IMG/VR virus record: IMGVR_UViG_3300021387_001054
DNA: 64,000 nucleotides
From: a virus
Direction: 5' to 3' (one strand)
The translations under genes were made by a program, and so were the position numbers. Below are positions 8,475-44,962 of the stretch, one piece after another. The notes below the pieces were generated by a model that made no database searches, was not told the origin of the DNA, and was given only the letters and a program-made list of their open reading frames with translations. Position 1 is the first letter of the stretch, and every line of letters begins with the position of its first letter.

Positions 8475-10931
8475 ATGCTGTTTCGTCAAATTAGAATGAT
8501 TACCGGTGATTGCGGCAAACGCAACGATTATATTATCTTTGTTAATTGTAAAGGTGGCAAAGCTCACCGTGACGCATTATCTGATTTAGTACGAGAAGGA
8601 TTTTGGATTGGTGATACACATTACGTAACCAGCGAACGGTCAGCATCTATGGTACGCACCTCTATACTTTCTTTTGTAGATGAAAGTATTAGTGAAGAAT
8701 TACGCCGTCGTGTCACGATGGATATACATTTAGAAACAACGGTTCTTTCTAAGTGGTATGCGTATCGCGGATTGATGTTAAGCTCGTGTCATTGTTTAGA
8801 GGGTTGGACGCCGCGTATTATTATCGTACCAGACTTATATCGTGTTATTGCAAATCAGACGATTAAGTATGTTTATGATAAACACATGACCTATGAAAAG
8901 GACGGTAAAGTATTACCGTGGGTGCAAAAAGATATTGCGACCGGTGTACGAGACATCGAGATCAATGCTGCGGATGGGTGTGGAATACATCATCCTGATA
9001 TTACCGATCAAGTTCGTGGCATGTTGGACGCTAAGTCCGACCCTACTTCAATCTTGTGGCGTGCGCCTTTTATCAAAGGCGTAACCCACGAGATGGATTA
9101 CATTTCATTTTTTCAAGAACGCGGGGTAACTGAAATAGTAGATATTTGGGGAGTACGTCACGACGTCTCCCCTTCTTCCCTACCTGCTATTATTATGTGT
9201 GAATCAATGTATAAAGGTTTCAAATATTTCAAACGCAATGGAGATGTGTCAGATTGGGAACATTATTGGGAAGTGTTTCATAAATACAATCATTGCATCG
9301 GAGTTGCGAAATGGAATTTTTCTTTAGATGAAGAACCTTTGTATACTCGCGGCAACTATCAGATATTGCAAGACTTAGATTTACCTTATGAGGATTTTGC
9401 TACGCTGGCGCGATATTCGATAAGTTGGGTGTCACGCATTCTTACCGGCGATCCCGTTTATCTGTATAGTTTTCTCGGATTATTTGCCGACCAACATAAG
9501 AGCTTTGATTTGCGCATGGAAGCGTTAGTTAAGAATCGTATGATGATTCATGAAGCTGGTGTACGTCAGTACATTATATCATTGATTTCTAAAACGATTG
9601 ATGATATGAAGTGTGGTAAATTATATTTGAAAGCCTGTTTTAAATTTGAAGCTCCTGACCTTATTATGTTAATGGAACATATCGGCGGTTTGCCTTTGCA
9701 TGGTTGTTTAGAATCAGATGAGTTTTTCTCGTTTAACAAACAAGGTAAGTTCAACGGTTATTATTTGGTGGAACGCAACCCCCATATTTGTCGATCTGAG
9801 CATTGCAAATTAAAAGCGGTTAATAATGAATTAACTGACAAGTATTGTTCCCACCTGGTGAATGTAGCTATGTTAAATAGTAAATCAATTACTGCCCAGC
9901 GATTAAACGGTAGTGACTTTGACGGCGATTTAGTATTAGTAATTGATGAACCCATGATGATGGCAGGCGTAGACCCCGACGTTCCAATTACGATTGATGT
10001 TGAAGATAAAGTTACTGCTTTAGAAGAAGCTGACACGCCTGAGAATCAGGTGAAAGTTGCATTACGTGGCATGAATTCGTTAATCGGTGAGACAAGTAAT
10101 TGTGCTACGGCATACATCAATAAAACGCCGAAGACCATTGAAGCTAAATTGCGCTATGACTCTTATATAAACTTACTGAGTGTTATCAATGGTAAAGCAA
10201 TTGATTCGGCTAAGACCGGTGTAGTGTATAATATTCCTAGATATATTGCTAAGTATGGGCGACCTCTCCCCTACTTCATGAAATATGCTTCACCATATTA
10301 TGCCAGCATGAAAGACTTATCTAAGTCACTTAGTAACATGAATCGTCTTTGCATGGAAATTGAATCGTGGCAGCGGTCTATCCGGTGGAATAAACCGTTT
10401 TCTAAATTTTCTGCTACGGGAACAATGCAAAACTTTGAGTATCATATTGACACAGAGGATAATATGAATCAGCCCGCAGAGTCACAGCATTTTGATTATA
10501 AAATCATGATCGACGATACAATCCCCGTCGATAAAAATAAACTCGAACAGATTCGGGCTATCTTTCTACAGTACAATCAAGAAAGTAGTGCTTTAACAAA
10601 AGAGTTTCGCGCAGGGTTATTAAAGGCTACAAATAAAAAGAGCCGATCTGAAAGCTATGTAATAGATATTGATTGGCAGACATTTTATAATTCGTACCGA
10701 TTAAGATGTTTTGATATTTGTCCTAACATCTGTGAGCTTGCTAACTATGCTGTTATTATTTGTTATGAGTATTATCCAAAAAGGTCAAAAGGTTTTTTGT
10801 GGCATATAGCTGGCGAAGGCATTATTGCTAATCTTAAACAAGTAGAAGAATATTTACCTATCAGAGATGATGCCGGTGACTACGAATATTTAGGTCGGCG
10901 GTATCGAATGGAGAAGATCATGTTTGATTAA
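8475..10931 (+). CDS. Candidate YonO-like single-chain DPBB RNA polymerase (818 aa)
   Basis: Contains NGSDFDGDLVLVIDE. DFDGD is the Mg-binding signature of the RNAP beta-prime double-psi beta-barrel and of YonO- and crAss-type phage RNAPs. The size is close to the recalled 839 aa of YonO. It is followed by an HU-like gene and then terminase and portal, as in SPbeta (from memory). Confidence 0.45.
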   Translation: MLFRQIRMITGDCGKRNDYIIFVNCKGGKAHRDALSDLVREGFWIGDTHYVTSERSASMVRTSILSFVDESISEELRRRVTMDIHLETTVLSKWYAYRGLMLSSCHCLEGWTPRIIIVPDLYRVIANQTIKYVYDKHMTYEKDGKVLPWVQKDIATGVRDIEINAADGCGIHHPDITDQVRGMLDAKSDPTSILWRAPFIKGVTHEMDYISFFQERGVTEIVDIWGVRHDVSPSSLPAIIMCESMYKGFKYFKRNGDVSDWEHYWEVFHKYNHCIGVAKWNFSLDEEPLYTRGNYQILQDLDLPYEDFATLARYSISWVSRILTGDPVYLYSFLGLFADQHKSFDLRMEALVKNRMMIHEAGVRQYIISLISKTIDDMKCGKLYLKACFKFEAPDLIMLMEHIGGLPLHGCLESDEFFSFNKQGKFNGYYLVERNPHICRSEHCKLKAVNNELTDKYCSHLVNVAMLNSKSITAQRLNGSDFDGDLVLVIDEPMMMAGVDPDVPITIDVEDKVTALEEADTPENQVKVALRGMNSLIGETSNCATAYINKTPKTIEAKLRYDSYINLLSVINGKAIDSAKTGVVYNIPRYIAKYGRPLPYFMKYASPYYASMKDLSKSLSNMNRLCMEIESWQRSIRWNKPFSKFSATGTMQNFEYHIDTEDNMNQPAESQHFDYKIMIDDTIPVDKNKLEQIRAIFLQYNQESSALTKEFRAGLLKATNKKSRSESYVIDIDWQTFYNSYRLRCFDICPNICELANYAVIICYEYYPKRSKGFLWHIAGEGIIANLKQVEEYLPIRDDAGDYEYLGRRYRMEKIMFD

Positions 10932-11625: not shown

Positions 11626-11763
11626 AAAAGTCTGTGTATATGAATACATAATATGTGTGGTAAATATAAATTGTTAAAATAAATGGCTCTGGCTGAGTCA
11701 AATTTAATTTTTGCTCGTGGTCTTTGGATTACGATCAAAGAAGTAAAGGAATGAAAGAACGTA

Positions 11764-12170: not shown

Positions 12171-12509
12171 GTGCTAGTGGTTAAAAAGGAATTAGTAGCA
12201 GAGATTGCTGACCGTATGAATATCGACAAAGAAACCGCAGGTTTATTCTTTCAAACATTTCAGGATGTAGTCTATGACACGCTTAATTCTGGCGAGGATA
12301 TTTTAATTGTTAATATGATGCGTATGGAGATTGTGCTACGCGATGGACGTAGCTATTATGATTTATCTGCAAAGGCAAACGCATGGGCACCGCCTAGATA
12401 TAATTTAGTAATTCGTCCTATTGGCAAATTAAAGGACTCTATTAAGAGCCAGAAGGTTTCTACTTATGAAGCAAAGAAATTGCGTAAGCACTCTCGGAGC
12501 GAAGACTAA
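12171..12509 (+). CDS. HU/IHF-like DNA-binding protein (GTG start)
   Basis: Length and pattern (KKELVAEIADRMNIDKETAGLFFQTFQDVVYDTL..GEDILIV...R.GR...........P...LVIRPIGKLKDSIK) parallel bacterial HU (MNKTELI..VA...L.K......V......I...L..GD.V.L.GFG.F.V..R..R.GRNP.TG....I.....P.FK.GK.LKD.V). Confidence 0.5.
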   Translation: MLVVKKELVAEIADRMNIDKETAGLFFQTFQDVVYDTLNSGEDILIVNMMRMEIVLRDGRSYYDLSAKANAWAPPRYNLVIRPIGKLKDSIKSQKVSTYEAKKLRKHSRSED

Positions 12510-26278: not shown

Positions 26279-26734
26279 GTGAATTTGGTGCCATCGAAAT
26301 TTAACGTGTCTTCTGATGTTAGCAAACGTACATATGATGGCATCGTATACGATTCAGCCGTCGAGATGAAGTTTATGCGGGATTATTTGAAACCCAAATT
26401 AGAATCAGGTGAATTGGTATCTGTTGAAAGACAAGTTAAGTATGTCTTACAACCCGCTTTCCGCCGTGAGGATAAATTAGTTAGAGCTATAAATTATGTC
26501 GCTGATTTTGTAATCACATACCAAGATGGTCATGTGTCAGTAATTGATATCAAGGGTATGGCAGATGCAACAGCATTATTAAAACGTAAGTTGTTTTGGT
26601 ATACGTTTCCAGATGTAGATTATCAATGGATTTCGTATTCTAAAACAGACGGCGGTTGGATATCTTACGATACTCTCATACAAAAGCGCAAAGAGCGCAG
26701 ACTAGAACGAAAGAAAAGGATGGAACATAAATGA
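26279..26734 (+). CDS. Hypothetical protein (151 aa)
   Basis: ORF with RBS aaggagtg. Confidence 0.35.
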   Translation: MNLVPSKFNVSSDVSKRTYDGIVYDSAVEMKFMRDYLKPKLESGELVSVERQVKYVLQPAFRREDKLVRAINYVADFVITYQDGHVSVIDIKGMADATALLKRKLFWYTFPDVDYQWISYSKTDGGWISYDTLIQKRKERRLERKKRMEHK

Positions 26735-27708: not shown

Positions 27709-29997
27709 ATGGATGATAAATTACAAGTCAAAGTAGGCGTTGCCCTAGACCCTGCAAGCAAGCAGAAAGTATTAAGTGAACTTAAAACTCTAAAACCTAA
27801 AAACAAAATTAAAGTTCTTGTTGACGCTGATACTAAACCTGCGTCAAAAAAAATTCAGAAACTCATTAACAAATACGCCAAAAAGAAACTTACACTTAAT
27901 GTTGATGCAAAAATTGGTGGAACGAATACTTCTAGGAGTTCGGCTGCTCTCAATAAGGTGCTTGTAGGACAAGCGCAACAAACAAAAAAGAAACTTGAAA
28001 AAACTTTTCAAGGGGTTAAATTTAATACATCATTCACTGATATTGGTGCAGAACGCAAACGCCTTGAACAAAAATTACAAGCAGCGGGTAAATCAGCCAA
28101 GGTTGGTGCCGGTTATAATGTCAAGAGAGACACTGATGGTAATATTACTCGTTTTGCTTTTGGTATTAAAAATGTAGGCGCTGAAGCTGAGTCGTCTCAG
28201 AAATCGGTTGCAAAATTATTTTATACCCTTAAAGAAATAGACGGACAAAAGATGTTCGTTTTAGACAGCAGTTCATTAGGTTCTCTCCCTACTTTTACGA
28301 AACAAATTGATAACTATGAACAAAAACTCAAAAACCTAAAAGCATTGTGGGGAAAGGAAGGAACTCTTTCTTCTACTCTTCCAGGTGGGCTACAACAAAC
28401 TGCTATTAGTGAGTTAAGTCAATTAGAAAGCATATTACAAAAGGTTCGTGGGCAAGCAGTTGTTACGGGCGAAGATGTGGCGCGTGTTGGGGCTGCGTTT
28501 ACGAGGTTTGATAAACAACCCGCTTTGTGGAAAAAACAGTTGACCCCAGATTCAAAATCACGGATGTCATTAGAGCAGTACAATAAACAGATAGATACTC
28601 TCTATAACAAAATGCGTCGCTTTCAAGCAGATAATCCTAAAACAAAACAAATGAGTGGGTTTTCTGGCCTATTACAAGAATTAGGTCAATTAGATCGAAA
28701 CAAGGTTGACGTCAATGGGTTAAATGACCTTAAAAGTAGATATGAAGGATTAGTTACTTCTGCTCACGAAATGGGCTTTGCTGGACAATCCGCTTTTAGT
28801 GCTTTAATAGGCAAAGCTAAAGAACTTGGTCTTTATTTAAGTACCAGTGTCATGTTTACCCATGTTATAGATGGGTTTAAGATGATGGTATCTAATGTAG
28901 TTGAATTAGATACTGCATTAACAGAACTTAAAAAGACTACGAATGGTTCACAACAGGATTATGCAAACTTCATTCAAGGAGCTGCAAATACCGCACAAGC
29001 TGTTGGTGCCAAAATCTCTGATGTTGTACAATCTGCGGCTGAATGGTCACGTTCTGGTTATGGACTACAAGAATCAGGTGACTTAGCGAAGGCAGCCAAC
29101 ATGTACATGAATGTCTCGGAGTATGACAATATCACTGATGCAACCCAATCTATGATTTCTTCTATGAAAGCATATGGTTATGAAGCATCGAATGTTATGA
29201 CTCTGTTAGACAAGTTCAATGCTGTCGGCAATACTACTGCAACCAGTTCGAGCGGTTTAGGCGATGCTTTACTGCGAAGCGCAAGCGCATTAGCAACAGC
29301 AGGAAATACTATTGACCAATCGTTAGGTTTGGTCGTAGCCGCCAACGAAACGGTGCAAAACCCGGAAAAAGTTGGTAACGGATTAAAGACTATTTCTTTG
29401 CGTATTCGCAATACGAAGGGTGAACTTGAAGAACTGGGCGAAGAATCCGATGGTGCAGTAGAGTCTATCACGAAACTGCAAACTCAATTGTTGAATCAAA
29501 CCCATGGCAAGGTTAACATTTTTGATTCTAACGGACAATTTAGATCAACGTATGATATTTTAACCGACCTTTCTCAAGCATGGGGTAGCTTAGATTCGGT
29601 TGAGCAAGCGAATATTACCACCATGCTTGCCGGTGCAACACAAGCCAATACATTGACTGCGATTATGCAGAATATGTCTGTCGGCGCGAAAGCTGTAGAA
29701 ACTTCGTTACATAGTCAAGGCTCTGCGGCAGAAGAAAATGCTCGTTGGATGGATTCTATTCAGGGCAGAATGCAGCAGCTCTCTGCAAGTTTCCAAGAAT
29801 TATCTGCGACTGCGATCAACACTGATTTCGTCAAAGGTTTCATTAGCGGTGGACAATCTATCATTGAAATCTTAAATCAAATCATTTCTACAGCCGGTGT
29901 ACTTAAACCTTTATTAGCAGGGTTTGGCGTCGGCGCATTTATTAAGAACTTTGGTTGGCTCATAAAACATAGAGTCACGCTTATTCCTATTTCATAA
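27709..29997 (+). CDS. Tail tape-measure protein, N-terminal portion (TP901-family core)
   Basis: SMISSMKAYGYEASNVMTLLDKFNAVGNTTATSSSGLGDALLRSASALATAGNTIDQSLGLVVAANETVQNPEKVGNGLKTISLRIRN matches the tape-measure core motif. Has a hydrophobic C-terminal segment. Confidence 0.7.
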   Translation: MDDKLQVKVGVALDPASKQKVLSELKTLKPKNKIKVLVDADTKPASKKIQKLINKYAKKKLTLNVDAKIGGTNTSRSSAALNKVLVGQAQQTKKKLEKTFQGVKFNTSFTDIGAERKRLEQKLQAAGKSAKVGAGYNVKRDTDGNITRFAFGIKNVGAEAESSQKSVAKLFYTLKEIDGQKMFVLDSSSLGSLPTFTKQIDNYEQKLKNLKALWGKEGTLSSTLPGGLQQTAISELSQLESILQKVRGQAVVTGEDVARVGAAFTRFDKQPALWKKQLTPDSKSRMSLEQYNKQIDTLYNKMRRFQADNPKTKQMSGFSGLLQELGQLDRNKVDVNGLNDLKSRYEGLVTSAHEMGFAGQSAFSALIGKAKELGLYLSTSVMFTHVIDGFKMMVSNVVELDTALTELKKTTNGSQQDYANFIQGAANTAQAVGAKISDVVQSAAEWSRSGYGLQESGDLAKAANMYMNVSEYDNITDATQSMISSMKAYGYEASNVMTLLDKFNAVGNTTATSSSGLGDALLRSASALATAGNTIDQSLGLVVAANETVQNPEKVGNGLKTISLRIRNTKGELEELGEESDGAVESITKLQTQLLNQTHGKVNIFDSNGQFRSTYDILTDLSQAWGSLDSVEQANITTMLAGATQANTLTAIMQNMSVGAKAVETSLHSQGSAAEENARWMDSIQGRMQQLSASFQELSATAINTDFVKGFISGGQSIIEILNQIISTAGVLKPLLAGFGVGAFIKNFGWLIKHRVTLIPIS

Positions 29998-30417
29998 GCG
30001 GCCTACTTTATAGTAAGGATGCAACGAATATGGTGTTGCTACAAGCTATATTAACATAGGGGTTCTAAAATACCTAGAGGAGTATTGGCGGTCTGCAATT
30101 CCGCTATGCTGGAACGGAAAGTGTTATATAACCAAAACGGAATCGGTGACGATAAACGGCAATGGTTTGAAAATATATAATGCAAGAAAATAACGATTTT
30201 ATTTTCATGTCCCAATCAGCAGGACACGCTTCTGATATCATTTTATGATAGTGAAGGATATACTGGTAATACAGAGTAATCTTCTTAACAGAGTGCATCT
30301 TCATCGACTACCCATCCTCCCTGCTATTCAGACCTTATATGAATAACAGGTAAAGTATAGTCAAAAATGTGCCCATAATATTTGATGGATTGTTATGGGT
30401 TAATATAATTGCAAAAT

Positions 30418-30446
30418 AAAGAAGCGACAAACTGCCGCTTCTTTTT
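30418..30446 (-). terminator. Bidirectional stem-loop terminator (gaagcg...cgcttc with flanking A and T runs) downstream of the antisense moron
   Basis: aaagaagcgacaaactgccgcttctttttt. Confidence 0.6.
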
Positions 30447-30449
30447 TAA

Positions 30450-31145
30450 TTAAAAATCACTATTACAATTATTGCAATGCCACTGTTTGCCAATCTTTGA
30501 ACTAGCAAGTCCTGTCATACCGACAGATACAGCTCGTCCCCCTACCCCGATCTTTTTGCAATTATGCGATCCGCAATATGGACAAGTGACGGTATGCTCT
30601 TGAACTGGAGGGTCGAATTGTTGCATTTCTATAGCATGACGCATTTCACGTTCCATAACTTCTTCCTCGTGTTGTTCGTCTACTATTTTACTTGCGTAAG
30701 AATCGAAGTCAGCCATGATTTCATTATATTTTTTAAGTTCATCCGTGTAAGATTGCCCCATAAATAAAACCGGGAATGTTGTAATAAACCAAAAAATCAA
30801 AATAAATATTCCAAAAATCCACCAATCAAGGTCGTATGGATCTACAAAAGTCCAAATTGCCGCGCCAAGCAATGGTGATAATAGGATAGCATATTTGAAT
30901 TTATCTAGTATTGTCCATTTAACTGGTTCTTTTGGTTTTGGGACTTGCTTGATAAGTTGTTCTCGTTTTTTCTCCCATTCCAAATCTTCTTGTCTGCATT
31001 GTTCTTCAAACCTCTTTTGCTTTTGCTCTTGTTCATCTTCAAGTTGTTTGCGATAGGTTTGAATGTCGTATCCGCAATTCGGACAAATTAAAGCACTGCT
31101 TGATACGTCTTCTTTGCCACATTCCGGGCATTTAATTAGTGCCAT
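30450..31145 (-). CDS. Double zinc-ribbon membrane protein (N-terminal CPECG..CPNCG, coiled coil, 2 TM helices, C-terminal CPYCG..CNNCN); moron in the tape-measure region
   Basis: Opposite strand to every flanking late gene. Has its own terminator and RBS (aggagggatgatatATG on the minus strand). Confidence 0.55.
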   Translation of the reverse strand: MALIKCPECGKEDVSSSALICPNCGYDIQTYRKQLEDEQEQKQKRFEEQCRQEDLEWEKKREQLIKQVPKPKEPVKWTILDKFKYAILLSPLLGAAIWTFVDPYDLDWWIFGIFILIFWFITTFPVLFMGQSYTDELKKYNEIMADFDSYASKIVDEQHEEEVMEREMRHAIEMQQFDPPVQEHTVTCPYCGSHNCKKIGVGGRAVSVGMTGLASSKIGKQWHCNNCNSDF

Positions 31146-34100
31146 ATATCATCCCTCCTTACAAAAATTATATCACATTTTGCAGTTAAAAGAAATAGGA
31201 AATATTTTTAAGGCACTACAAAATGGTAAGAATTTTGGTGATATCAAAGATTCTTTAGATGGGCTGACGAAGTTCGGACGAGCAGTTACAGGAAAAGGAT
31301 TAGCGCGGTTACATGCAAAAGGTGCTATTGATGATTCTACATGGAAGGCTGCGCGCAATAGATTAGGTTTAGACGCAAGCGATGCTGCTAATGCGGCTAG
31401 TTTAATAGACACTGTTTCTGGAAAAGTTAATTCTCTAAAAACTGCATTGTCTGGATTAAAACAAATTGGCAGCAATGGGCTGTCCACAATCGCATCTGGA
31501 TTACAGCAAATTATTTCAGCAGGAGAAGGTGCTACCAACATCTTCCAAGGCGTTTGGGCTATGCTAAAACAAGGTGGAACCATGTTTATGGGTTCGTCGT
31601 TGCCGATAGTTGCTATGATTGCTGCCGCGACGGTTGCACTAAAAAAAGCATACGACGCAGCGCATGAATACGAAAACGCTCACCAAAAAGCTGTCGATTC
31701 ACAATCTTCATATGATAGTACGATCAGCGAGATAGATACACTTAATTCTAAATTAGATACTACTAAGCAACGGCTGAATGAACTGCGGACTATGCGCAGC
31801 AACGGTACTATCAGTGTAACAGACAAAGCAGAGTTGGATCGGTTAGAACGTGAAAACACTGAACTGGAAACTAGACAAAAGTTATTAGAAGGCGAAGCAA
31901 AACGACAACAGCGAACCGCTTCTATTGATGCTGTAGGCGCACTCAAAGCTAAAGAGCAGTCTCAGTACATGAAAGAACATGGGTATGAGACAGAAGAAGC
32001 AGTTAACTATACAGATAAAATTACTGCTGTTCGGCAAGACCTGCAATATCTCGATCAATTATATCGTAACCGTTCTGATTTAGAACAGCGACTCATCTCC
32101 GCATATAATAGTGGAGACACAAAAACTCAAGATAATCTTAAAAGCCAACTCAACGACAATGAGGCAGAAATCGAAAAGTATCATGAAACTTTATCGAAGA
32201 CTATGCCTGAGATCGAAAAGTATAGAGATACTTTACAACAGGATACGAATTTAGGTTCTATTGCAGGTGGAGAACAAGCCCTTACTGCTGCTTCTCAGTT
32301 AATGAATATGTGGCAAAATATTGGCACATCTCAAAGCGCAGCCGAAAAGACCTTATCTCAACTGAATACATTCTTTGATGGTAGTTCTAACAACACCGCC
32401 ATCAAAGACCAGATTATTGAGATGATGGATGCAGCAACCCCCGCTTCTGATGCTTTACATATGCTGGGCTTATCTTTGCAAGATTTAGGCGTTGAAGCTA
32501 CGCCTGAAAACCTTGCTGCTTTTAATAAGTATTTTGGTGAGTTAAAACAGCAAGCAGAGGATGCTGCGACTTCTGTCAAAACGCTTCAAGACGAAGTAGA
32601 TGGCACTATGTCTGGCATTGCAACAGCGATGGAGTCTCAAAATGCTGGAGCAAACTACGAACAGCTTGACCAATATTTAACTAAAGCAAAATCTTTATAT
32701 GATAGCGGATTAGTTGGTACTGATGATTTTAAGACTGTCGCTAAGATGATCTCTACAGGTGGCGCAGATATTGAAAAAGCTGTTCAAGATTTTTCTACTA
32801 ACTACGCAAACCTTCAGAAATATTTTACTAAAGATAGTAGTGGCAATTTCACTCGCACCGGTATTGACAAGTTTGTTTCTGACTTAGAAGCAACTGGGAA
32901 AACCTTCCATTCTACCGCAGAGGCCGCTGATGCACTCGGCATTTCAGCGGGAGCTTTTGAAGTTATTTTAGGCAGATTAGGAGATTATGACATCAAAAAG
33001 TATGGGGACAATGCTTTTGATGGCATGGTCAAATCTGCGGCAGCTTTTGAACAGGCCAAAGAAAATCTGTCACAATTACAGACTTTGTATGATAATATGG
33101 ATGAGGGCGGTCGCAAAGACGCTCTTGGCGATAAATTATCTAATTGGGAATCTCAAATTGACAAAGCGCAAACCGATCTGGAATCATTAGATACGGACAT
33201 TGTTTTGCAAATGAAATTAGAATATGATTTAGACTCTTTGCGAAACGAGATCGACGAAGCGCGTAGCGTGGCTCAAGCTGGTGGCGACGCTACAACTTGG
33301 GCTACTGCCATTAGCAAGCAACAGAAATATACTCAGGTTTCAGAACATGCCATGGGTATTGACCGTGAAGGCATTGAATTGCCTGTTAGTTATAAGATCG
33401 CAAAAGAATCATTTGCAGATTTACAAAGCCAGTTGAAAGAAGCTGTAGATAATGGCGATACTGAACTAATTGCTAAATTGCAACCTCAAGTTGAAAATGC
33501 TGGCGAGTTAGTTAACAGTTTAGACGACGCAATTCGAGAAAGCAAACCCGAACTCTCCCCCACGCTGGACGTCAGCGAAGCTAATAAACAACTTAGTGAC
33601 TGGGAAGCACAAAGTCGCAACACAAAGTTAGTCAAAGAGGCTTATATCAACTACATAACTGGTGGACAAGAAGCTCCCGAAGAAATGGATGCTTTGATGG
33701 ATTATATCTTGGCACATCAAGATAATCCGGAAGATACGCAGGCAATGCTTGATTACATTAAAAGTCATCAAGACAACCCTGATGATATGCAAGCAATGCT
33801 TGATTACTTATTAAAGCATCAAGACGATCCAAACCCAATGAAAGCAGCATTGGATTACTGGAAACGAACTCAAGAAGGAGCGACACAATCAAATACTAAG
33901 GTTAACTATAGACGAGGATCGCAGGAAGGCCCCGCACCAAAAACAGCTTTTGTACATTATATTGCATCGGGAGTTGCGGGTGCGGTTAGACGAGCTAAAG
34001 ACTGGGTATCTCAACACGCACCTCACGCCCAAGGCACAGCTCATGCTTTTGGTTCTTGGGGTTTGCATAAAAACCAAACTTCTCTCATCAATGAGTTAGG

Positions 34101-36408
34101 CGAAGAAATCATTGTTCGTAATGGTAAATGGTTTACTCTCAATAATGGCTATCCTACTTTTGCAAAACTCCGGCGCGGTGACATAATTTTCAATCATAAA
34201 CAAACAGAAGAATTGTTGAAGAATGGTTATGTCACCAATTCTCATGCTCGTATATTTGGTGCGGCTCGTGCAGCAGGAACAGTCAGCGGTACTGCATTTG
34301 CAACTGGAACGAAAAAATCTAAATCATCTAAGAATACATCTTCTGATAAAACAACAATTGATTGGCTTGAAATTCTGCTTGACCGCGCAGAACGTGCCGT
34401 TAAAAAACTGACTGATAAAGTTGGAAACACTTTTGCAAAGTACACATATCGTTTACAAGATGTTGCAAAAGCAATTACATCTACTCAGTCTGAAATCGCC
34501 AAACAACGCAAGGCGCAAGCTGCTTATCAGAAAAAAGCAAATGCTGTAAAACTTTCTGCTGGCTTAAAAAAGCAAGTGCGCGAAGGTGCATACTATATTT
34601 ATGATTATGATGAGAAAACCCAAAAACTCATTAACGATTATAAAGAGTGGTATGAAAAGAGTTTAGACGCCAAGGATGCTATTGATGAATTAACTGAATC
34701 GTTAGGCGAGTTAGCGCAGAAGGCGTTTGACATTGTATCAAAAGAGTATGCGAATGAGTTTGATACATTAGAAAACCATGGAAAGTTGATTAGTGGCGCG
34801 GCAGACCTTGCAGAAGCAAGAGGGTACTTTGTTAATAGCGGCACGTATACCGATCTTATTGGTATGGAACAACGCAAACGCGATAAAGGCATTAAACAAT
34901 ACAATGACTTAAAAGCACAACTTGATAAAGCTGTAAAATCCGGCGCGGTCGCAAAATTTTCCGAAGAATGGTGGGCGATGTCGAACGAGGTTCGTGAAGC
35001 CTCTATTGCAATTCAAGAGTGCGATGTAAGCATTGCAGAGTTCCAGCAAAAGATCAATGAGTTGAACTGGGAGAAGTTTGATTATCTGCAAGATACAATT
35101 AGTAAAGTAATTGACGAATCTAATTTCTTAATTGATTTATTGGAAGATTCGGATTTATTTACTGATTCGGGTCAGCCTACATCTGAAGGCTGGGCAACGA
35201 TTGGATTGCACAGTTCTAACATTAAAGTGTATCAAGATCAAGTTAAGCAATACGCCAAAGCTATTCAAGATGTAGACAAACAACTCGCCAACGATCCGTA
35301 TAATAAAGAACTGATTTCTCGCAGAACTGACTTATACGAAGCGCAACAAAAAGCTATTCTAGCAGCCAAAGATGAAAAGAAGGCTATTTCTGATTTAATC
35401 GAAGATGGTATTGATAAGCAAGTCGATCATATTAAAACTCTGATTGATACTTATACAGATGCTTTAGATGAAGCAAAGAGTTTATATGATTATCAGCGGA
35501 AGGTCACTGACCATACCAAAGAAATTGCTGCTATTCGTAAACAAATTGCGGCTTATAGCGGCGATGAATCTGATGAATCCAAAGCACGTATTCAGAAATT
35601 ACAAGTTGACTTAGAAAATGCAGAGAACGATCTTAAAGATACTGAGTATGATAAATATGTATCTGACACGAAGAAATTATTAGACAATTTCTATACACAG
35701 TACAAAGAAGATATGGAACGCCGTGCCGAACATTCTGATTCGTTGGTAGATGAATTGATTGGACAAGTAGACAGTCATTCCACAGAAATCAATGATGTTA
35801 TTCGGACTACAGCAAAAGATGTTGGTTATACGTTATCTTCTTCTATGAGCACACTAATCAGTGACACAAATGGTGGATTAACAAATATTACATCTATGTT
35901 GCAAACCATTAGTGACTACATAAAAGAGATGGCTGATGTTGCGGGTAAAACAGAGTTAAATAAAAACGGAGATCCTGTTGTGAACAGCAATGGCGAAGTT
36001 CAGTATGTAAAACCCAAAAAATGGGTATCTCGAACCAGTATCACGACAGGAGATCCTTCTAAGAGAGTAATTTCTGCTGACAGTAATGGCGCATCTATGC
36101 TCTCAACGATGAGTAATTTGCGTCCTATAACTCATCGTACCATTGGCGTTAAACCAACAATGTACCGCAATGGCAATAGTTTATTAAGTATGCCTGCCGT
36201 CGGATATGACACTAATAGCACAGGTGGCAATATCAATATCGCGGCAACAGCTAATGTAAGTATCGACCATGTATCTGACTACAATGATTTTGTAACGCAG
36301 TTACAGCACGACAAACAATTTGAATCTATGATTCAGTCCATGTCTGTTGATCGTCTTGTCGGCAAAACGTCTTTAGCCAAGAATAAATATAATTGGAGAA
36401 ATAATTAG
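31063..36408 (+). CDS. Tail tape-measure protein, C-terminal portion (start uncertain)
   Basis: Long coiled-coil protein with tandem about 16-aa repeats (AMLDYIKSHQDNPDD, x3-4 at about 33690-33870). The first 27 codons of the listed ORF overlap the antisense gene and are probably not coding. The first in-frame ATGs with a Shine-Dalgarno sequence are 31561/31582 (aaggtgg-N4-ATG), but TMP-like coding continues upstream to about 31195. Confidence 0.55.
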   Translation: MSYPQFGQIKALLDTSSLPHSGHLISAIYHPSLQKLYHILQLKEIGNIFKALQNGKNFGDIKDSLDGLTKFGRAVTGKGLARLHAKGAIDDSTWKAARNRLGLDASDAANAASLIDTVSGKVNSLKTALSGLKQIGSNGLSTIASGLQQIISAGEGATNIFQGVWAMLKQGGTMFMGSSLPIVAMIAAATVALKKAYDAAHEYENAHQKAVDSQSSYDSTISEIDTLNSKLDTTKQRLNELRTMRSNGTISVTDKAELDRLERENTELETRQKLLEGEAKRQQRTASIDAVGALKAKEQSQYMKEHGYETEEAVNYTDKITAVRQDLQYLDQLYRNRSDLEQRLISAYNSGDTKTQDNLKSQLNDNEAEIEKYHETLSKTMPEIEKYRDTLQQDTNLGSIAGGEQALTAASQLMNMWQNIGTSQSAAEKTLSQLNTFFDGSSNNTAIKDQIIEMMDAATPASDALHMLGLSLQDLGVEATPENLAAFNKYFGELKQQAEDAATSVKTLQDEVDGTMSGIATAMESQNAGANYEQLDQYLTKAKSLYDSGLVGTDDFKTVAKMISTGGADIEKAVQDFSTNYANLQKYFTKDSSGNFTRTGIDKFVSDLEATGKTFHSTAEAADALGISAGAFEVILGRLGDYDIKKYGDNAFDGMVKSAAAFEQAKENLSQLQTLYDNMDEGGRKDALGDKLSNWESQIDKAQTDLESLDTDIVLQMKLEYDLDSLRNEIDEARSVAQAGGDATTWATAISKQQKYTQVSEHAMGIDREGIELPVSYKIAKESFADLQSQLKEAVDNGDTELIAKLQPQVENAGELVNSLDDAIRESKPELSPTLDVSEANKQLSDWEAQSRNTKLVKEAYINYITGGQEAPEEMDALMDYILAHQDNPEDTQAMLDYIKSHQDNPDDMQAMLDYLLKHQDDPNPMKAALDYWKRTQEGATQSNTKVNYRRGSQEGPAPKTAFVHYIASGVAGAVRRAKDWVSQHAPHAQGTAHAFGSWGLHKNQTSLINELGEEIIVRNGKWFTLNNGYPTFAKLRRGDIIFNHKQTEELLKNGYVTNSHARIFGAARAAGTVSGTAFATGTKKSKSSKNTSSDKTTIDWLEILLDRAERAVKKLTDKVGNTFAKYTYRLQDVAKAITSTQSEIAKQRKAQAAYQKKANAVKLSAGLKKQVREGAYYIYDYDEKTQKLINDYKEWYEKSLDAKDAIDELTESLGELAQKAFDIVSKEYANEFDTLENHGKLISGAADLAEARGYFVNSGTYTDLIGMEQRKRDKGIKQYNDLKAQLDKAVKSGAVAKFSEEWWAMSNEVREASIAIQECDVSIAEFQQKINELNWEKFDYLQDTISKVIDESNFLIDLLEDSDLFTDSGQPTSEGWATIGLHSSNIKVYQDQVKQYAKAIQDVDKQLANDPYNKELISRRTDLYEAQQKAILAAKDEKKAISDLIEDGIDKQVDHIKTLIDTYTDALDEAKSLYDYQRKVTDHTKEIAAIRKQIAAYSGDESDESKARIQKLQVDLENAENDLKDTEYDKYVSDTKKLLDNFYTQYKEDMERRAEHSDSLVDELIGQVDSHSTEINDVIRTTAKDVGYTLSSSMSTLISDTNGGLTNITSMLQTISDYIKEMADVAGKTELNKNGDPVVNSNGEVQYVKPKKWVSRTSITTGDPSKRVISADSNGASMLSTMSNLRPITHRTIGVKPTMYRNGNSLLSMPAVGYDTNSTGGNINIAATANVSIDHVSDYNDFVTQLQHDKQFESMIQSMSVDRLVGKTSLAKNKYNWRNN

Positions 36409-38071: not shown

Positions 38072-41000
38072 ATGGATATAAAGATTAAATTCGACGACGA
38101 ATGTATGCCACAGACTCCTACATTTGTACTTGCTACACGCAGCGGAGAGTATATTGGCGCGGTGCCTGCTGTTAATATTACGTGTAAAAACCCATGGAAT
38201 GCTAATGCTGATTTAATGTTTCGAGTCTATAAATATGATAATGACGTAGAGTATCAATACTGGCATGAATTAAAAGACTTTAGATTGGTTTGGTGTAGAG
38301 AATGGAATGCGTGGTTTGAGATTTCAGTAGAGTTAGAAGAAGCTCCTCATATATCAAAAATTATTACTTGTACTTCTTTAGCAGAAGCAGAATTGGGACA
38401 AATCATGTTATATGAGACTGAAATCAATACTGAGGATGATATTGCTCGTTCTGATTATATACCGACAGTGTTATATCAACCAGACAAACCGCGAGGTTCT
38501 TTATTAACGCGCATACTCAAAAAGGCTCCAAACTATATCATTGAACATGTAGATGACAGCATTAAAAATATCCAACGAACTTTTTCATTTCACGATGTGA
38601 GTATTTACGATGCTTTTCAAACTATTACAGAAGAAATAGATTGTATTGCGATCTTTCGCGCTTATACTACAGATACAGGGGAAATTAAACGCTCTATATC
38701 TGTATATGATTTAGAAAATTCTTGTTCTGCATGTGGTGAACGAGGAACTTTTGAAGATATATGTCCAAAATGTGGCAGCACAAATATAACACCCGGATAC
38801 GGAGAAGACACTACTGTTTTTGTTTCAGTAGATAATTTAGCTGATAATATTAACTACACTACGGATGTAGGTTCTGTTAAGAATTGTTTCCGGTTAGAAG
38901 CTGGGGACGATTTAATGACTGCGGCGATTGTGGCTTGTAACCCGAATGGAACACAATATTTGTGGCATTTTTCGGACGATATGAAAAGCGATATGTCGCA
39001 AGCATTAGTAAAAAAAATCAACAACTATGACCAACTTTATCAATCATACCTCACCACCCACGAGATTAGTATTGAAAACACTAAGTTATTGCAACAATAT
39101 AACCAGATTGTTACGAAATATAATAATTTACATTCACAAAATTTTTCAACCATTGAATCGCCTTTGCATGGTTTTTCAGAACTAATGCGTGCGTACTACA
39201 ATGTCATAGATTTTGATTTGTATTTATCCCACGGTATGATGCCATCCCCTCCCCCCGCTCCTGATTCGGCTACCGAGCAAGCAACATTGTTAGAGACGGA
39301 GCATATGCCTGCTGTAGCTGTATTATCTATACCAAAGTGTACAGTTTCTACAGCATCAAGTGCGGTGCAGGCTATGGCTCGTGTAGTTGTAGACCCTCAC
39401 TTCCAAGTTCGCGTCGGAGACAGTGCATTGAGTGATATAACAACAGAAGCATCTGGGGAGCAATATCGGCAATGGACAGGCACGTTTGTTATTACGAATT
39501 ATGATGATGATACTGATACGGCTACAACTAATAGTATTTCTATTAGAATCACAAACGAATATATAAGCTATGTTCAGCAACGTATGCAGTCTCTTTTGGA
39601 TCGACACAGTGAAGACGCTTCAGATATTGTTACTTTATTTCAGTTACCCATTGCTAACTTTAAGCAAGAATTAAAAAAGTATGGACAAGCATCTTTGCAA
39701 ATATTTTATGATGCTTGTCAGTCTTGTATGGATGTTTTAATTCAGCAACAGGCGTATGCTGATTACACAGATGTAGCAACAAGTTATTATAACAATTATT
39801 ATGAACGATTATCTGCTTTATCTGATGAATTAGCCGTGAGAGCATCGGAGATTGCTGTTGTGTCTGGACAACAGGTTGGAGTGGTTGCGGGGCATAGTAT
39901 GTTAGAAATCTTACAGGCTAAACGCACCAAAATTCAAGCAGCACTAGATTTTGAAACTTATTTAGGTGAAAATTTATGGTTAGAATTTTCGTTATATAGA
40001 CGAGAATGCTCGTTCTCGAACAGCAACTATATTTCTGATGGCTTAGATAATTTTCAGTTATTTCAACGCGCACAAGAGTTTTTTGATAAAGCATCCCAAG
40101 AGATTTATAAATCAGCCAATTTGCAACACTCTATTACCGCTACTCTAAAAAATTTGTTAGCTATGGAAGAATTCAAACCTTTAGTTCAACATTTTCAGTG
40201 TGGTAATTGGATTCGTATTCGAGTCGATGACAATGTTTATCGTTTGCGTTTAATAAGTTATGACATAGATTTTGATGATTTAACACATATAACAGTTGAA
40301 TTTTCAGATGTAAAGCAAGTTTCTAATGGTGTAACTGACGCAGAAAGTATTTTTGCACAAGCCAAACAAATGGCAACCTCTTACACTGCAACACAGAGAC
40401 AGGCCAGTAAAGGCAATAAGAGCAGCCGACAAGTGCAAAATTGGGTAGACGATGGTTTATCATTAACTACCATGAAGATTGTGAATGATGCTAGTAATCA
40501 AGATATTGTTTATTCTGATAGTGGCATTACGTTACGCGAAAAAATCCCGTTCACCGACGAATATGATCCGCGCCAAATTAAATTGATAAATCAAGGGTTG
40601 TATGTCACGAATGATAATTGGCAAACGTCCAGCGCAGGGGTTGGACACTTTTATTATTATGATCCTGCTACTGGAAACATCGTTGATGATTATGGTGTTA
40701 TAGCAAATACTATTGTCGGTAACTTATTATTAGGTAAGAATTTAGGTATTTATAATTCAGACGGCAGTGTAACAGTTAATGAGAATGGATTGACTTTAAC
40801 AACAAATACTGATGATGACCAATCGCAAAAAAATATCTTCACCATACAAAAAGAAACGGATAATCAGGATGGCACAAAAACAACCATTCCCCTCTTATAC
40901 ATTGATGACGACGGAAACCTTGTCTTAAACGGTTCGATGAAAATTGTATCTGATATTGAAGGAGTTACTACACGTACCTTTGACGATGTCGCTGCGGATG

Positions 41001-41290
41001 TAGACGAGATCAAATCGCAAGACAGATATCGTGTTGAAACGGTTGTATCTGGTGTCAACATTTTTAATTCAAGAAACCAGAGCAGTCGCATGGAATGTCA
41101 TGTGTATTCGTGGGATAAAGATATCACTGATACTATAAATGCTTCGTGCTTTGCGTGGCATCGTCATTCTGCGAACCCAAACTCAGACGCGACATGGGAT
41201 GCCGCTCATAAAGGCATGAAATATATTGTTGTATCAACAGAAGATGTGTTTCAGAATGCGTCGTTTACGTGCGAGGTTACGTTAGAATAA
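38072..41290 (+). CDS. Tail-associated lysin (Tal) / phage minor structural protein, 1072 aa
   Basis: Position after Dit and its size. Has an internal CSACG...CPKCG zinc ribbon. Confidence 0.5.
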   Translation: MDIKIKFDDECMPQTPTFVLATRSGEYIGAVPAVNITCKNPWNANADLMFRVYKYDNDVEYQYWHELKDFRLVWCREWNAWFEISVELEEAPHISKIITCTSLAEAELGQIMLYETEINTEDDIARSDYIPTVLYQPDKPRGSLLTRILKKAPNYIIEHVDDSIKNIQRTFSFHDVSIYDAFQTITEEIDCIAIFRAYTTDTGEIKRSISVYDLENSCSACGERGTFEDICPKCGSTNITPGYGEDTTVFVSVDNLADNINYTTDVGSVKNCFRLEAGDDLMTAAIVACNPNGTQYLWHFSDDMKSDMSQALVKKINNYDQLYQSYLTTHEISIENTKLLQQYNQIVTKYNNLHSQNFSTIESPLHGFSELMRAYYNVIDFDLYLSHGMMPSPPPAPDSATEQATLLETEHMPAVAVLSIPKCTVSTASSAVQAMARVVVDPHFQVRVGDSALSDITTEASGEQYRQWTGTFVITNYDDDTDTATTNSISIRITNEYISYVQQRMQSLLDRHSEDASDIVTLFQLPIANFKQELKKYGQASLQIFYDACQSCMDVLIQQQAYADYTDVATSYYNNYYERLSALSDELAVRASEIAVVSGQQVGVVAGHSMLEILQAKRTKIQAALDFETYLGENLWLEFSLYRRECSFSNSNYISDGLDNFQLFQRAQEFFDKASQEIYKSANLQHSITATLKNLLAMEEFKPLVQHFQCGNWIRIRVDDNVYRLRLISYDIDFDDLTHITVEFSDVKQVSNGVTDAESIFAQAKQMATSYTATQRQASKGNKSSRQVQNWVDDGLSLTTMKIVNDASNQDIVYSDSGITLREKIPFTDEYDPRQIKLINQGLYVTNDNWQTSSAGVGHFYYYDPATGNIVDDYGVIANTIVGNLLLGKNLGIYNSDGSVTVNENGLTLTTNTDDDQSQKNIFTIQKETDNQDGTKTTIPLLYIDDDGNLVLNGSMKIVSDIEGVTTRTFDDVAADVDEIKSQDRYRVETVVSGVNIFNSRNQSSRMECHVYSWDKDITDTINASCFAWHRHSANPNSDATWDAAHKGMKYIVVSTEDVFQNASFTCEVTLE

Positions 41291-41433: not shown

Positions 41434-42588
41434 TCAGACGTGCTGAGATGATACTGTATCCGGTACTTGACTATCCTTTGCAAGATAGTTGATTCCCATG
41501 CGATACAGATTCATTGCTCCGATACGGTCATCATTGGACGTGTAACCGCAAGATTTACAGCAGAAGATATGCTTATTTTTATCACGGTTAGACTTTTCCG
41601 TGTGACCGCAAACAGGACAGGTCTGGCTCGTATAACGAGGGTCTACGTTAATTACTAGACTCTCGTTGAGCGCAGCCTTATACTTTAACTTCTTCTCCAG
41701 GTCGTAAAACGACCAAGATACGGTAACATAACGGTCTTTGCGACGCACCTTCTCTGTGGCAGAACGAACGCCGGACAGGTCCTCTAAGACAAAGAGCGTG
41801 TGCTTCGGGTTAGACTCAACGAGTGCCTTTGATACACAATGGTTTACATCCTGCATCCAACGGTTTTCTCGCTGACCGATAGCTTTTAGCCTTCGTCTTG
41901 CAGAAGGAGTCTGTCTTTGCTGAAGTTCCTTGCGGAGCTGTTTGTACTTAGCACGTTTTTGCTTAATATTCCTGCCGCTTACAAAGCCGGACTTATGTTT
42001 GCTGTCATAGGTTGCAACGACAAAGTTAATACCCCTGTCTACGCCGACAACATTACAAACGTCGCAATCCAAGGCTTCAAGGATATCTCTGGTAACTGGG
42101 ATATGCAGAAAATACTTGCCATGCTTTTTCACAAGTTTGGCAGTGCCAAAGGAGTAGATATCGTGGTCAAAGTATTTCTCCATGCCACCAGAATAGTATG
42201 GCAGCTTCACACGACCGCTAAGTGTATTTACAGAGAACAAGTTCTGCGTAAGAGAATAGTCTCTATTCCACACAAGGTCGTATTGAGGATTAGAAAAATC
42301 TGGCTTAATCCATTCATGTTGGTTTTCTAAGATGGTTTTGTATCTTGCAATAACCGTCTTAAAAACAGATTGTGCCATCTGGGATTTTAAGCCATAGCGC
42401 TTACGGAGATCATAATACAATGCCTTATTAAGCGAAAACTGCTTCAGGTCATGCGTCTGGAAGATGTAATTTGCCACAAAGTTACACGCACTGCGATAGG
42501 TGTCCATAGTAACATCCAACAGCTCACGCTGTTCGGGTGCAACTCGGACCTGAATCTTTGCAGTAGTAGTGATTTGCATCAGTAACAT
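41434..42588 (-). CDS. tnpB: TnpB (OrfB) RuvC-like RNA-guided endonuclease of IS200/IS605
   Basis: RuvC-I VVGVDRGINF, RuvC-II LFVLEDLSG, zinc finger CPVCG...CKSCG, RuvC-III NDDRIGAMN. Confidence 0.85.
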   Translation of the reverse strand: MLLMQITTTAKIQVRVAPEQRELLDVTMDTYRSACNFVANYIFQTHDLKQFSLNKALYYDLRKRYGLKSQMAQSVFKTVIARYKTILENQHEWIKPDFSNPQYDLVWNRDYSLTQNLFSVNTLSGRVKLPYYSGGMEKYFDHDIYSFGTAKLVKKHGKYFLHIPVTRDILEALDCDVCNVVGVDRGINFVVATYDSKHKSGFVSGRNIKQKRAKYKQLRKELQQRQTPSARRRLKAIGQRENRWMQDVNHCVSKALVESNPKHTLFVLEDLSGVRSATEKVRRKDRYVTVSWSFYDLEKKLKYKAALNESLVINVDPRYTSQTCPVCGHTEKSNRDKNKHIFCCKSCGYTSNDDRIGAMNLYRMGINYLAKDSQVPDTVSSQHV

Positions 42589-43147: not shown

Positions 43148-44962
43148 ATGGCTATTTTAACCAGTTCTCCGCAGACATTTATTGATATTACCGATCAACG
43201 TAAATTATCTGCGTATATAACTGCTAATTTGCCGAAAGTACAAACGGAAGACCCGAATGTGTTACCGCATGAATACGAGCCGGATTGGACAACGACAAAA
43301 CTTAAATTAACGCCCGTAGTGTTCCTCGACCAAACTGAAATTGGTCTTAAAGAAACCGGCTTAACTATCTCATGGAAACGTAAAGATGGTTCTGGCGCGG
43401 AAACATCATTAGTGTCCGGCGAATCTGTCAGTAATGGTATTTTGACAATTTCTAAAAATGTACTACCTACTTCAAGTAGTGGCATGATTACTTATCTTTG
43501 TCATATTAGTTTTTACGACAGTGAAACGCAAAGCACTGTAAAGATTACATCTGATTTGACTTTTACTCTTGTCAAAAACGCATCTAATGCAAGATTAGCT
43601 TATGTGACTGCTGACACTTATGTATTCAAATATAATACAAATTCGACTTTAGTTGGAGCAAAACAGGCTACTCTGAGCGGACAAGTACAAGGTGTGCAAA
43701 TTTCTAAATGGCAATATAAAAATAGTTCAGGTAATTGGGTGGATTATCCGACCACTTCTGATAACGATAATATCACAAGTGATACTCTAATCGTGAAACC
43801 AACTCATGCAGTATTTGTGAGCAATGTTGCTCAAATTAAATTAGTAACGGATGATGCAGATGTTTTTGATACTATTAGCATTACAAAGTTATATGATGGA
43901 GCGCAAGGCAGCGGTGGCGTAGGAGGTTTATCTGTAGTTCTCGGAAACGAAGCACAGACTATTGCGTGCACGAAGGATGGCTTAGTTGAATCTGCTTTTA
44001 ACATTGAAATACCTTTTTCTGCTTATCAAGGTACAACTCAGATTGCATGTTCATGTACGGTTGGTACTTTGCCTTCTGGTATAACAATTAAAACCAATAC
44101 TGCGGCTACAGCAAGTGCCGCAGGTAAATTGATTCTAGCGGTAGAAGCCAATGGGACATTAGGTGGTAAGAATGTCGTAAATGGTTCTATTACTCTTACT
44201 TTTGCTGTTTCTGATAAATCTGTCGTTAAGAATTTTACATGGTCTAAATCAACGAAAGGCGCAACGGGAGAACCGGGTGCGGCCGGTAAAAACGCGGTCG
44301 TTTTCTCTGTTTATGCTCCTAATGGAACAATCGTTCAGAATCAATCTGGTTCTATTACATTGGCGACTGCTGCATACGACGGCGGCGATGAAATTACGTC
44401 CGACGCGACATACCAATGGGCGAAATATGTAAGTGGCAAATGGACAAATATCAGTGGCGCAACGTCCGCTACATTAAGTGTGTCTGGCAGCGATATTGTT
44501 AATATTCAATCGTATCGTTGTACCATGACATATTCTGGGACTACTTATAAAGACATTATTACAGTAGAAGATAAGTCTGACCCGTATGTATCTGAAATGT
44601 TGAGTATTGGTGGTTTTACAGTCAAAAACGGACAAGGTGGATTAGTGCCGTATGTCATTGTTCGTACAAACCAAAAAGAGGTAGATGCTCTTAAAGGTAT
44701 TATAAGTACAACAGCACCAAGTAATCCAACAACTGGAACATTTTGGTACGCTATAGATCACAGTGCTAAAACTGTGACATTAAAAAAATATTCTGGTTCA
44801 GCGTGGAAAAACGCAACAGAAAAACAGTCTTTAACTTATACATGGTACAAACAAGATAAAAATGGCAATGCAGTTACCTTCAATAAGACCGGTAAAGTAA
44901 TTTATTTATCAGCCGATGATATAGATGTGTTGGCAACTTTGCAATGCGACGTGACACAGTGA
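43148..44962 (+). CDS. Tail fibre / receptor-binding protein 1
   Basis: N-terminus MAILTSSPQTFIDITDQ is paralogous to the N-terminus of the 44971 gene. Ig-like, S/T-rich beta-type sequence and a short collagen-like GATGEPGAAGKN. Confidence 0.45.
   Translation: MAILTSSPQTFIDITDQRKLSAYITANLPKVQTEDPNVLPHEYEPDWTTTKLKLTPVVFLDQTEIGLKETGLTISWKRKDGSGAETSLVSGESVSNGILTISKNVLPTSSSGMITYLCHISFYDSETQSTVKITSDLTFTLVKNASNARLAYVTADTYVFKYNTNSTLVGAKQATLSGQVQGVQISKWQYKNSSGNWVDYPTTSDNDNITSDTLIVKPTHAVFVSNVAQIKLVTDDADVFDTISITKLYDGAQGSGGVGGLSVVLGNEAQTIACTKDGLVESAFNIEIPFSAYQGTTQIACSCTVGTLPSGITIKTNTAATASAAGKLILAVEANGTLGGKNVVNGSITLTFAVSDKSVVKNFTWSKSTKGATGEPGAAGKNAVVFSVYAPNGTIVQNQSGSITLATAAYDGGDEITSDATYQWAKYVSGKWTNISGATSATLSVSGSDIVNIQSYRCTMTYSGTTYKDIITVEDKSDPYVSEMLSIGGFTVKNGQGGLVPYVIVRTNQKEVDALKGIISTTAPSNPTTGTFWYAIDHSAKTVTLKKYSGSAWKNATEKQSLTYTWYKQDKNGNAVTFNKTGKVIYLSADDIDVLATLQCDVTQ

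Follow-up and report, generated by a model that had tools for sequence, protein, structure and literature searches.

The window analyzed here, that is, the whole 64,000-nucleotide stretch taken from IMG/VR virus record IMGVR_UViG_3300021387_001054, belongs to an SPbeta-like phage, of which a near-identical contig has YonD, YonB, YomW and YomU-type genes. Our analysis concerns its tape-measure gene, the coding sequence of which is broken by an insertion that has the features of a group I intron and carries a gene on the opposite strand. Upstream of the break, a plus-strand open reading frame (ORF) at 27709-29997 encodes 762 amino acids (aa), with a Pfam match to PF10145 PhageMin_Tail at residues 430-642 (E 1.4e-23), and its stop lies 14 codons past a hydrophobic segment; an earlier note on this DNA had likewise described a tape-measure core with a stop after such a segment. 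The odd C-terminus of this ORF can be attributed to the exon-1 frame reading into the intron. Downstream, tape-measure-like coding resumes in the same frame and reaches 36408, and between the two parts lies a complete antisense gene with a ribosome-binding site (RBS) and a two-way terminator; on both points our analysis agrees with the note. The element itself proved to be 1,227 nt long, and not 1.07 kb. The features of the locus are as follows.

27709-29955, plus strand: tape-measure exon 1 (749 codons, ending AAC TTT GGT = N-F-G), from the ORF, the PF10145 match and the relatives' homology, which ends right after GGT
29956-29997, plus strand: continuation of the exon-1 frame within the intron, 13 codons and TAA, WLIKHRVTLIPIS, from the ORF list and the DNA
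29956-31182, plus strand: putative group I intron of 1,227 nt, with U29955 before the 5' splice site and G31182 as its final base, from exon continuity and core elements
30418-30446, both strands: intrinsic-terminator hairpin, -10.8 kcal/mol on the plus strand and -15.8 kcal/mol on the minus strand, from folding
30450-31145, minus strand: cargo gene, 231 aa, with an N-terminal zinc ribbon, a long helix, two transmembrane helices, a helix and a C-terminal zinc ribbon (CPYC...GKQWHCNNCNSDF), from Pfam and an AlphaFold model
31153-31159, minus strand: RBS of the cargo gene, AGGAGGG, 7 nt before the ATG, from sequence reading
31167-31175, minus strand: candidate extended -10 promoter of the cargo gene, TGATATAAT, ~10 nt inside the 3' splice site, from sequence reading
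31183-36408, plus strand: tape-measure exon 2 (starting CAG TTA AAA = Q-L-K; 1,741 codons and a stop), from the ORF list and the joined ORF
33715-33846, plus strand: tandem repeat within exon 2, unit 51 nt = 17 aa, ~2.2 copies, from repeat analysis

Insertion boundaries and the joined reading frame

Joining position 29955 to 31183 yields a single ORF of 2,490 aa, with the predicted exon junction sequence ...AACUUUGGU/CAGUUAAAAG, where the slash marks the splice site. The joined product, GAFIKNFG/QLKEIGN, aligns without gaps both with the uninterrupted relative L014 (GAFIKNFDNLKNVS) and with the spliced form of the interrupted relative L009 (AAFIKNYG/QLKDLGN), and thus displays the precise exon continuity with uninterrupted homologues that is characteristic of group I introns. 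The intron start follows a U (GGT/) and its end is a G (TTTTG/CAG); the last base, G31182, has an equivalent G in L009, in the L008 family and in L074.

We aligned the junction region of five relatives and used that alignment to retrieve further loci, 67 of them viral. In at least 24 of these 67 distant relatives (27-46% aa identity), the tape-measure frame breaks off directly behind the same Gly codon, in the conserved context F-x-x-x-x-G (DNA ...GGT/), and is regained 1.2-4.7 kb downstream. The same codon is the site of the break in three of five prophages in Clostridia metagenome-assembled genomes (MAGs; Oscillospiraceae, Acutalibacteraceae); L014, L004/25/26/43, L022, L001 and L002 are uninterrupted at this site. 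Alignment to uninterrupted relatives, by which the earlier note had proposed to locate the breakpoint, therefore placed it exactly, right after GGT (Gly), at a position shared by many loci. Because two independent metagenome contigs (L003/L007 and L005) with 96-100% identity carry the same arrangement, it is no assembly artefact. A megablast search of the whole region against 50,697 phage records gave no match, and a junction-spanning protein query matched the N-part only, with low-complexity words dominating the candidates.

Since the break codon is shared, exon 2 has no RBS and a ribozyme core is present, an intron-like element is favored among the three options that the note had offered, while a moron making two genes and an unusual reinitiation were not supported. 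On the present sequence evidence, we consider it probable that the tape measure is one gene interrupted by a group I intron at 29956-31182, and the tape-measure protein would then most likely be made as a single polypeptide after RNA splicing.

The alternative in which a moron split the gene into two, so that a 762-aa N-part and a C-part starting at TTG 31180 or at ATG 31561/31582 are both made and work together with no splicing, seems to us quite improbable. It can draw on the gene caller's choice of a start equivalent to TTG 31180 for the C-part of L005, on an ATG at the equivalent position in L009 and L074, on the sequence AAGGTGGA upstream of ATG 31582, and on the cargo gene, which shows all the marks of a moron. 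However, inspection of the DNA revealed no Shine-Dalgarno sequence upstream of 31180/31183, that is, before exon 2, and none before the ATG of L009 or L074. The note was thus right that no Shine-Dalgarno-equipped start occurs early in the downstream part, although in-frame starts do exist there (ATG 31063 and TTG 31180, neither with an RBS). TTG 31180 and the equivalent ATGs are better explained as supplying the terminal G of the intron. Moreover, a two-gene tape measure gives no role to the identical break codon in dozens of distant phages, to the guide pairings or to the full set of core motifs, and our searches did not find relatives with two separate genes, no insertion signature and a conventional start of the C-part. 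The antisense "moron" of the note is accordingly cargo inside the intron, and not the splitter of one gene into two.

A group II intron was dropped for lack of a domain V or a group II match in Rfam; an intein was considered and dropped, as the N-part ends just 14 residues past the junction; and translational bypass was dropped, as 1.2 kb far exceeds any known bypass.

A Pfam search with exon 2 (31183-36408) returned no match. The tandem repeats of 16 aa reported for this part in the note turned out to have a unit of 17 aa. Exon 2 of L005 is 56 aa longer than that of the window, so that tape-measure length differs among otherwise 96%-identical phages. Between the window and L005, the identity falls to 83% or vanishes over window positions 32835-34029, around the 51-nt repeat region.

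Putative ribozyme elements in the window and in sister introns

The putative ribozyme takes up about 450 nt at the start of the intron. Its core is IA2-like and resembles that of phage introns of the nrdD/sunY type, with extra hairpins in P5 and P6. The following elements, all on the plus strand, were assigned.

29953..30003: P1, GGU/UG (29953-29957) paired to CGGCC (29999-30003), the U29955-G30001 wobble marking the splice site, from sequence reading
29956-61/29972-77 and 29978-84/29994-30000: two hairpins enclosed by P1, from sequence reading
30077..30400: ribozyme core as a whole, from motifs P, Q, R and S and folding
30077-81/30315-19: P3, anchored on the P/Q/R/S motifs
30086-91/30101-06: extra hairpin between P3 and P4, from comparison with reference introns
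30107-12/30216-21: P4, from comparison with reference introns
30116-18/30210-12: P5, with a ~90-nt extension, motif-anchored
30222-24/30298-300: P6, with a ~65-nt extension, motif-anchored
30306-10/30358-62: P7, GACUA/UAGUC, motif-anchored
30320-30/30340-50: P8, folding z -5.1
30371-78/30393-30400: P9, folding z -3.3

A drawing of P4 at 30086-91/30101-06 was rejected, as the comparison with reference introns shows the extra hairpin there.

The R- and S-like elements flanking a hairpin were read from the window and turned into a search pattern, which retrieved 29 viral loci. Nearly all of these are group I introns by their conserved elements; their ORF lies 3' of the core, and several sit at the apparent end of nrdD-type genes, as judged from the flanking frames. 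The P (ATGCTGGRA) and Q (AATCAGCAG) motifs are common to these reference introns and were absent from the search pattern. In the 64-kb window P (30106), Q (30214), R (30302) and S (30355) each occur once, in this order and on the plus strand, while about 6e-12 such ordered sets are expected by chance. The reference set also covaries as expected of a structured RNA: 88% of the alignment cells are paired, versus 29-46% with slid partners, and 17 pairs are changed on both sides, versus 9.2 in shuffles. The window intron has the group I core (P3-P9, the P/Q/R/S elements and the P3/P7 pseudoknot), and the 5' exon ends in a U engaged in a U-G wobble within P1, a helix of 5 bp here versus 6-7 bp in sister introns at the same site. 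Folding of the whole 5' part gave a z score of -3.0, and P8 and P9 were also far beyond shuffles.

The sister introns in the same tape-measure site provide a second line of evidence. L009 shares the first 50 intron bases of the window with compensatory changes in the first hairpin, and its changes preserve the pairing of both P1 and the first hairpin enclosed by it; it has a P1 of 6 bp, a P10 of 6 bp and a canonical AAUUGCUUGAAAG / GUUCAGAGAGCA core. L058 has R and S of the window's type, a P1 of 7 bp and a P7 in which one pair is compensated (GACUC/GAGUC). In the L008 family, the exon sequence GCUGGGU pairs with GCCCAGC at intron position +31 to form a 7-bp P1, and P10 has 4 bp; the family also has canonical Q-P6, P7 and P8 and an R element running into P3', which we take to be much like that of the Tetrahymena intron. 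In an 18-sequence alignment, the structure of this family is paired in 99.8% of cases versus ~43% with slid partners, with six compensatory pairs; 2 of 500 shuffles gave as many. The core helices are invariant in this alignment and are uninformative either way. An Oscillospiraceae MAG provided L074, in which the break falls at this codon too; the intron there scores 48.9 bits against Rfam Intron_gpI (RF00028; E 1.5e-11 in a 441-nt search; gathering score 50). Its layout matches that of the window: core, terminator-like hairpin, antisense zinc-ribbon gene, exon 2. Apart from L074 in that small search, Rfam returned nothing at this site for the window, L006, L041 and 12 related loci.

Several observations weigh against the interpretation as an active group I intron. 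Rfam RF00028 does not match the window at the gathering score or at E values up to 10, Intron_gpI does not match the L008-family intron either, and a P4-P6 covariance model built from the reference introns missed the window, its best matches being noise at E ~1; the insertions in P5 (~90 nt) and P6 (~65 nt) probably explain the failure of both models on the window. P1 has only three exon base pairs and P10 only one. About 780 nt separate the core from the 3' splice site, and no helix was seen that would bring the two together; a hairpin with a U-run on the plus strand inside the intron could halt late transcription. The closest relatives, at 96-100% identity, are too similar for covariation of this very intron, and a back-translated junction pattern found no intron-less allele of the window phage in the metagenome or in viral collections. 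As for sequence relatives of the core, blastn against phages gave only a 43-nt chance match, and a 19-nt core pattern gave three matches in metagenomes, all by chance.

Some of these points would also suit a dead intron in a decaying prophage, in which the cargo, the weak P1 and P10 and the internal terminator abolished splicing and left the tape measure broken. We regard this as unlikely. The few exon pairs, the plus-strand terminator and the failure of both Rfam and the P4-P6 model speak for it, as does a TnpB element elsewhere in the tail module. On the other hand, the surrounding structural genes are all intact and both exons are open across 2,490 codons; three independent samples share the arrangement; the ribozyme part shows 2 differences in ~460 nt among close relatives, none of them in the core helices P3, P4, P7, P8 and P9; and viral contigs of 85-160 kb from many diverged phages have preserved the layout.

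The plus-strand terminator, just 3' of P9, and the long unstructured 3' part of the intron are likewise what trans-splicing would call for, in which transcription stops at the terminator, exon 2 is transcribed separately together with the intron's 3' end, and the two RNAs associate. However, the promoter scan found no plus-strand promoter for the 3' piece, no complementary segments were seen that would hold the two RNAs together, and the plus-strand U-tract is lost in relatives, so that termination there is not conserved. We therefore judge trans-splicing to be highly improbable.

Other observations concern introns in tape-measure genes of the relatives. L024 has a second group I intron (L024:3384-3791; RF00028, 52.8 bits) ~1.5 kb upstream in the same tape-measure gene that bears the cargo intron. 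In L001 (Thomasclavelia phage TR-TP1, PQ571309.1), the tape measure at 7519-12845 is annotated as separate coding sequences (CDSs) interleaved with two HNH endonuclease genes, and homology to window exon 1 begins upstream of the second annotated CDS; the HNH insertions are probably two unannotated introns at other sites. Within the last ~70 nt of the L008-family introns lies a hairpin that varies in sequence between loci with its complementarity kept and has a UUGACCA-like loop. It sits between the antisense promoter and the antisense start codon, and could be a helix at the 3' terminus of the intron or a structure in the 5'-UTR (untranslated region) of the antisense mRNA.

The antisense cargo gene and its counterparts in relatives

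The 231-aa cargo protein matches Zn_ribbon_3 (PF13248; E 3.8e-8), and its AlphaFold model (pLDDT 87) is a helical membrane hairpin between two zinc ribbons. It has at least 667 homologues, mostly unnamed, and no match in PADLOC, in PDB sequences or in a Foldseek search of the PDB. Pfam, NCBIfam and PHROGs gave zinc-ribbon matches only for the cargo ORF, none of them to a homing endonuclease, and the ORF list and Pfam revealed no transposase in the window intron. Family members occur in the same tape-measure insertion in L079 and L081, and others adjoin helix-turn-helix (HTH) regulators elsewhere in prophages, which argues for a general accessory gene and not an intron-specific enzyme.

The gene forms a unit of the moron kind, with its own promoter, a single gene and a terminator, the promoter being a sequence match only; unlike a moron placed between two phage genes, it lies inside the intron of one gene. 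A consensus promoter scan did not flag TGATATAAT (31167-31175), as its -35 element is weak. In L003 and L005, the plus-strand U-tract of the terminator is broken and the minus-strand U-tract is kept, and the terminator therefore serves the antisense gene. Substitutions between the window (30417-30504) and these two loci are concentrated in the terminator and at the antisense gene's 3' end, at 9 per 100 nt versus 0-5 per 100 nt elsewhere, and destroy the plus-strand U-tract only.

In the relatives too, the cargo lies 3' of the ribozyme, and the insertions range from 1.2 to more than 5 kb. The C-terminal motif CPYC...GKQWHCxxCxSxF was found at 22 loci, all of them interrupted, and at none of the uninterrupted loci. 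In every complete example, the CPYC-motif zinc-ribbon gene adjoins the 3' splice site, in the antisense orientation except in L054. In the L008 family, 15 of 15 loci have the promoter of this gene, a perfect TTGACT-N17-TATA[AC]T, straddling the 3' splice site. The content between the core and the zinc-ribbon gene differs: an Abi_2 gene in L058 (1e-41), SocA_Panacea and PemK in L037, an aspartyl protease in L011, and, in the ~5.8-7.5-kb insertion of L079/L081, GmrSD_N, DUF2513 and an ANT antirepressor. In L080 (Logan SRR24359762_467), from ~6930, what follows the C-part and cargo is not the N-part but a group of bacterial-looking genes (Flg_new, a pseudouridine synthase, a two-component system); either the assembly is chimeric here or a prophage ends within the cargo.

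Predicted splicing and comparison with known systems

A polymerase that probably transcribes the late operon, and with it the interrupted gene, is encoded in the same window.

8475..10931, plus strand: YonO-like single-chain two-barrel RNA polymerase, 818 aa, PF05183 RdRP (E 2.7e-17), from Pfam

YonO transcribes the late genes of SPbeta as one operon, rarely pauses, and is without the flap domain for hairpin-dependent termination (PMC5467207). With few pauses and no flap domain, such an enzyme would pass an internal hairpin. The sequences show the anatomy of the locus, the exact and conserved break, the core motifs with their pairings and the varied cargo of the relatives. From them we infer splicing of 29956-31182, the polymerase at work on the intron, and the timing and purpose of cargo expression, and propose the following course. 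During lytic growth, the late operon would be transcribed across the intron, probably by the YonO-like polymerase, which the internal hairpin terminator would affect little. The folded intron would attack the U29955/U29956 bond with a guanosine cofactor and join GGU to CAG. The product would be an mRNA for a single 2,490-aa tape measure, which at ~1.5 Å per residue would correspond to a tail of ~370 nm. Host polymerase would read the cargo gene off the opposite strand, plausibly during lysogeny, and the surrounding essential gene would come to no harm.

A wider proposal, which we advance only tentatively and regard as rather doubtful, is that the intron at this tape-measure site may be a conserved safe harbor for holding and exchanging lysogeny-expressed accessory and defense genes in phages of gut Clostridia, and that the zinc-ribbon gene, with its promoter on the 3' splice site, may be functionally coupled to the intron. 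For example, splicing could be under the control of the zinc-ribbon transcript or protein, and the making of the tape measure would then be gated between the lysogenic and lytic states.

Group I introns have been documented in tape-measure genes of Bacillus cereus-group prophages (TMP-IVS1, 2 and 3; Tourasse and Kolsto 2008, PMC2504315). As in the phages studied here, different introns fit the same site through P1 and P10, and some are without a working homing endonuclease; the comparison with TMP-IVS1-3 is at the level of the gene. The short B. cereus introns have either no cargo or a homing endonuclease gene, whereas the window intron carries an unrelated antisense transcription unit, its relatives carry several kb of accessory genes, and the hosts are SPbeta-like phages of gut Clostridia. 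IStrons join a group I intron to an IS200/IS605 element (PMC4227781). CdISt1 and its relatives share with the window intron an IA2-type ribozyme at the 5' end, a large non-endonuclease cargo 3' of P9, occurrence in Clostridia, and splicing, predicted for the window, that makes the insertion harmless. However, IStron cargo is a transposon (tnpA/tnpB) that gives mobility, while the window cargo has no transposase, lies on the opposite strand with its own promoter and varies in content among relatives, and P7.1/P7.2 were not seen. No tnpA or tnpB lies 3' of the ribozyme; the TnpB of the window is elsewhere, at 41434-42588.

That TnpB-like gene (41434-42588, minus strand; Cas12f1-like_TNB 3.3e-20, OrfB_IS605 1.5e-7) lies antisense between the tail-module ORFs 38072-41290 and 43148-44962 and is a second antisense insertion of the late operon. 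Also in the tail module, a DUF1064 protein is encoded at 26279-26734 on the plus strand, with the tube gene on one side and chaperone-like genes on the other, an unusual location for such a gene; the assignment is a precomputed Pfam match on the L005 copy.

The resemblance to IA2 introns of the T4 nrdD (sunY) type runs through the 29 viral-contig introns, whose R and S match those of the window exactly or almost exactly, whose P and Q resemble them, and whose ORF follows the core and is not in P6. Those introns have a sense, endonuclease-like ORF, whereas the window intron has long P5 and P6 insertions and the extra P3-P4 hairpin. In nuclear rDNA, group I introns that bear antisense genes for homing endonucleases (PMC9548176) likewise have a protein gene opposite to the ribozyme strand; unlike the window intron, they are eukaryotic and carry a His-Cys box endonuclease with spliceosomal and polyadenylation signals. 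Text searches, whose coverage was incomplete, found no description of a phage group I intron with independent, oppositely transcribed accessory or defense genes. Tape-measure introns are known, and an antisense membrane/zinc-ribbon cargo in place of a homing endonuclease appears to be new.

Morons, as described by Hendrix and colleagues, are promoter-gene-terminator units added to phage genomes, and the classical ones sit between genes. The window cargo shares with them its own promoter, single gene and terminator, its absence or replacement in relatives and its orientation against the late operon, but it is placed inside an intron within an essential gene.

To conclude, annotation pipelines call such tape measures as two or three genes, as in L005 and Thomasclavelia phage TR-TP1, which leads to wrong protein lengths and tail-length estimates. 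If the intron splices, the phage would make a normal 2,490-aa tape measure and a tail of normal length, and the intron would be a slot for extra genes at no cost to an essential late gene. Relatives fill the same slot with Abi_2, a PemK/Panacea toxin-antitoxin, a GmrSD-type restriction domain and an antirepressor. A self-splicing intron may thus act as a carrier of defense and lysogenic-conversion genes, a role hitherto described for intergenic morons and, in another form, IStrons.

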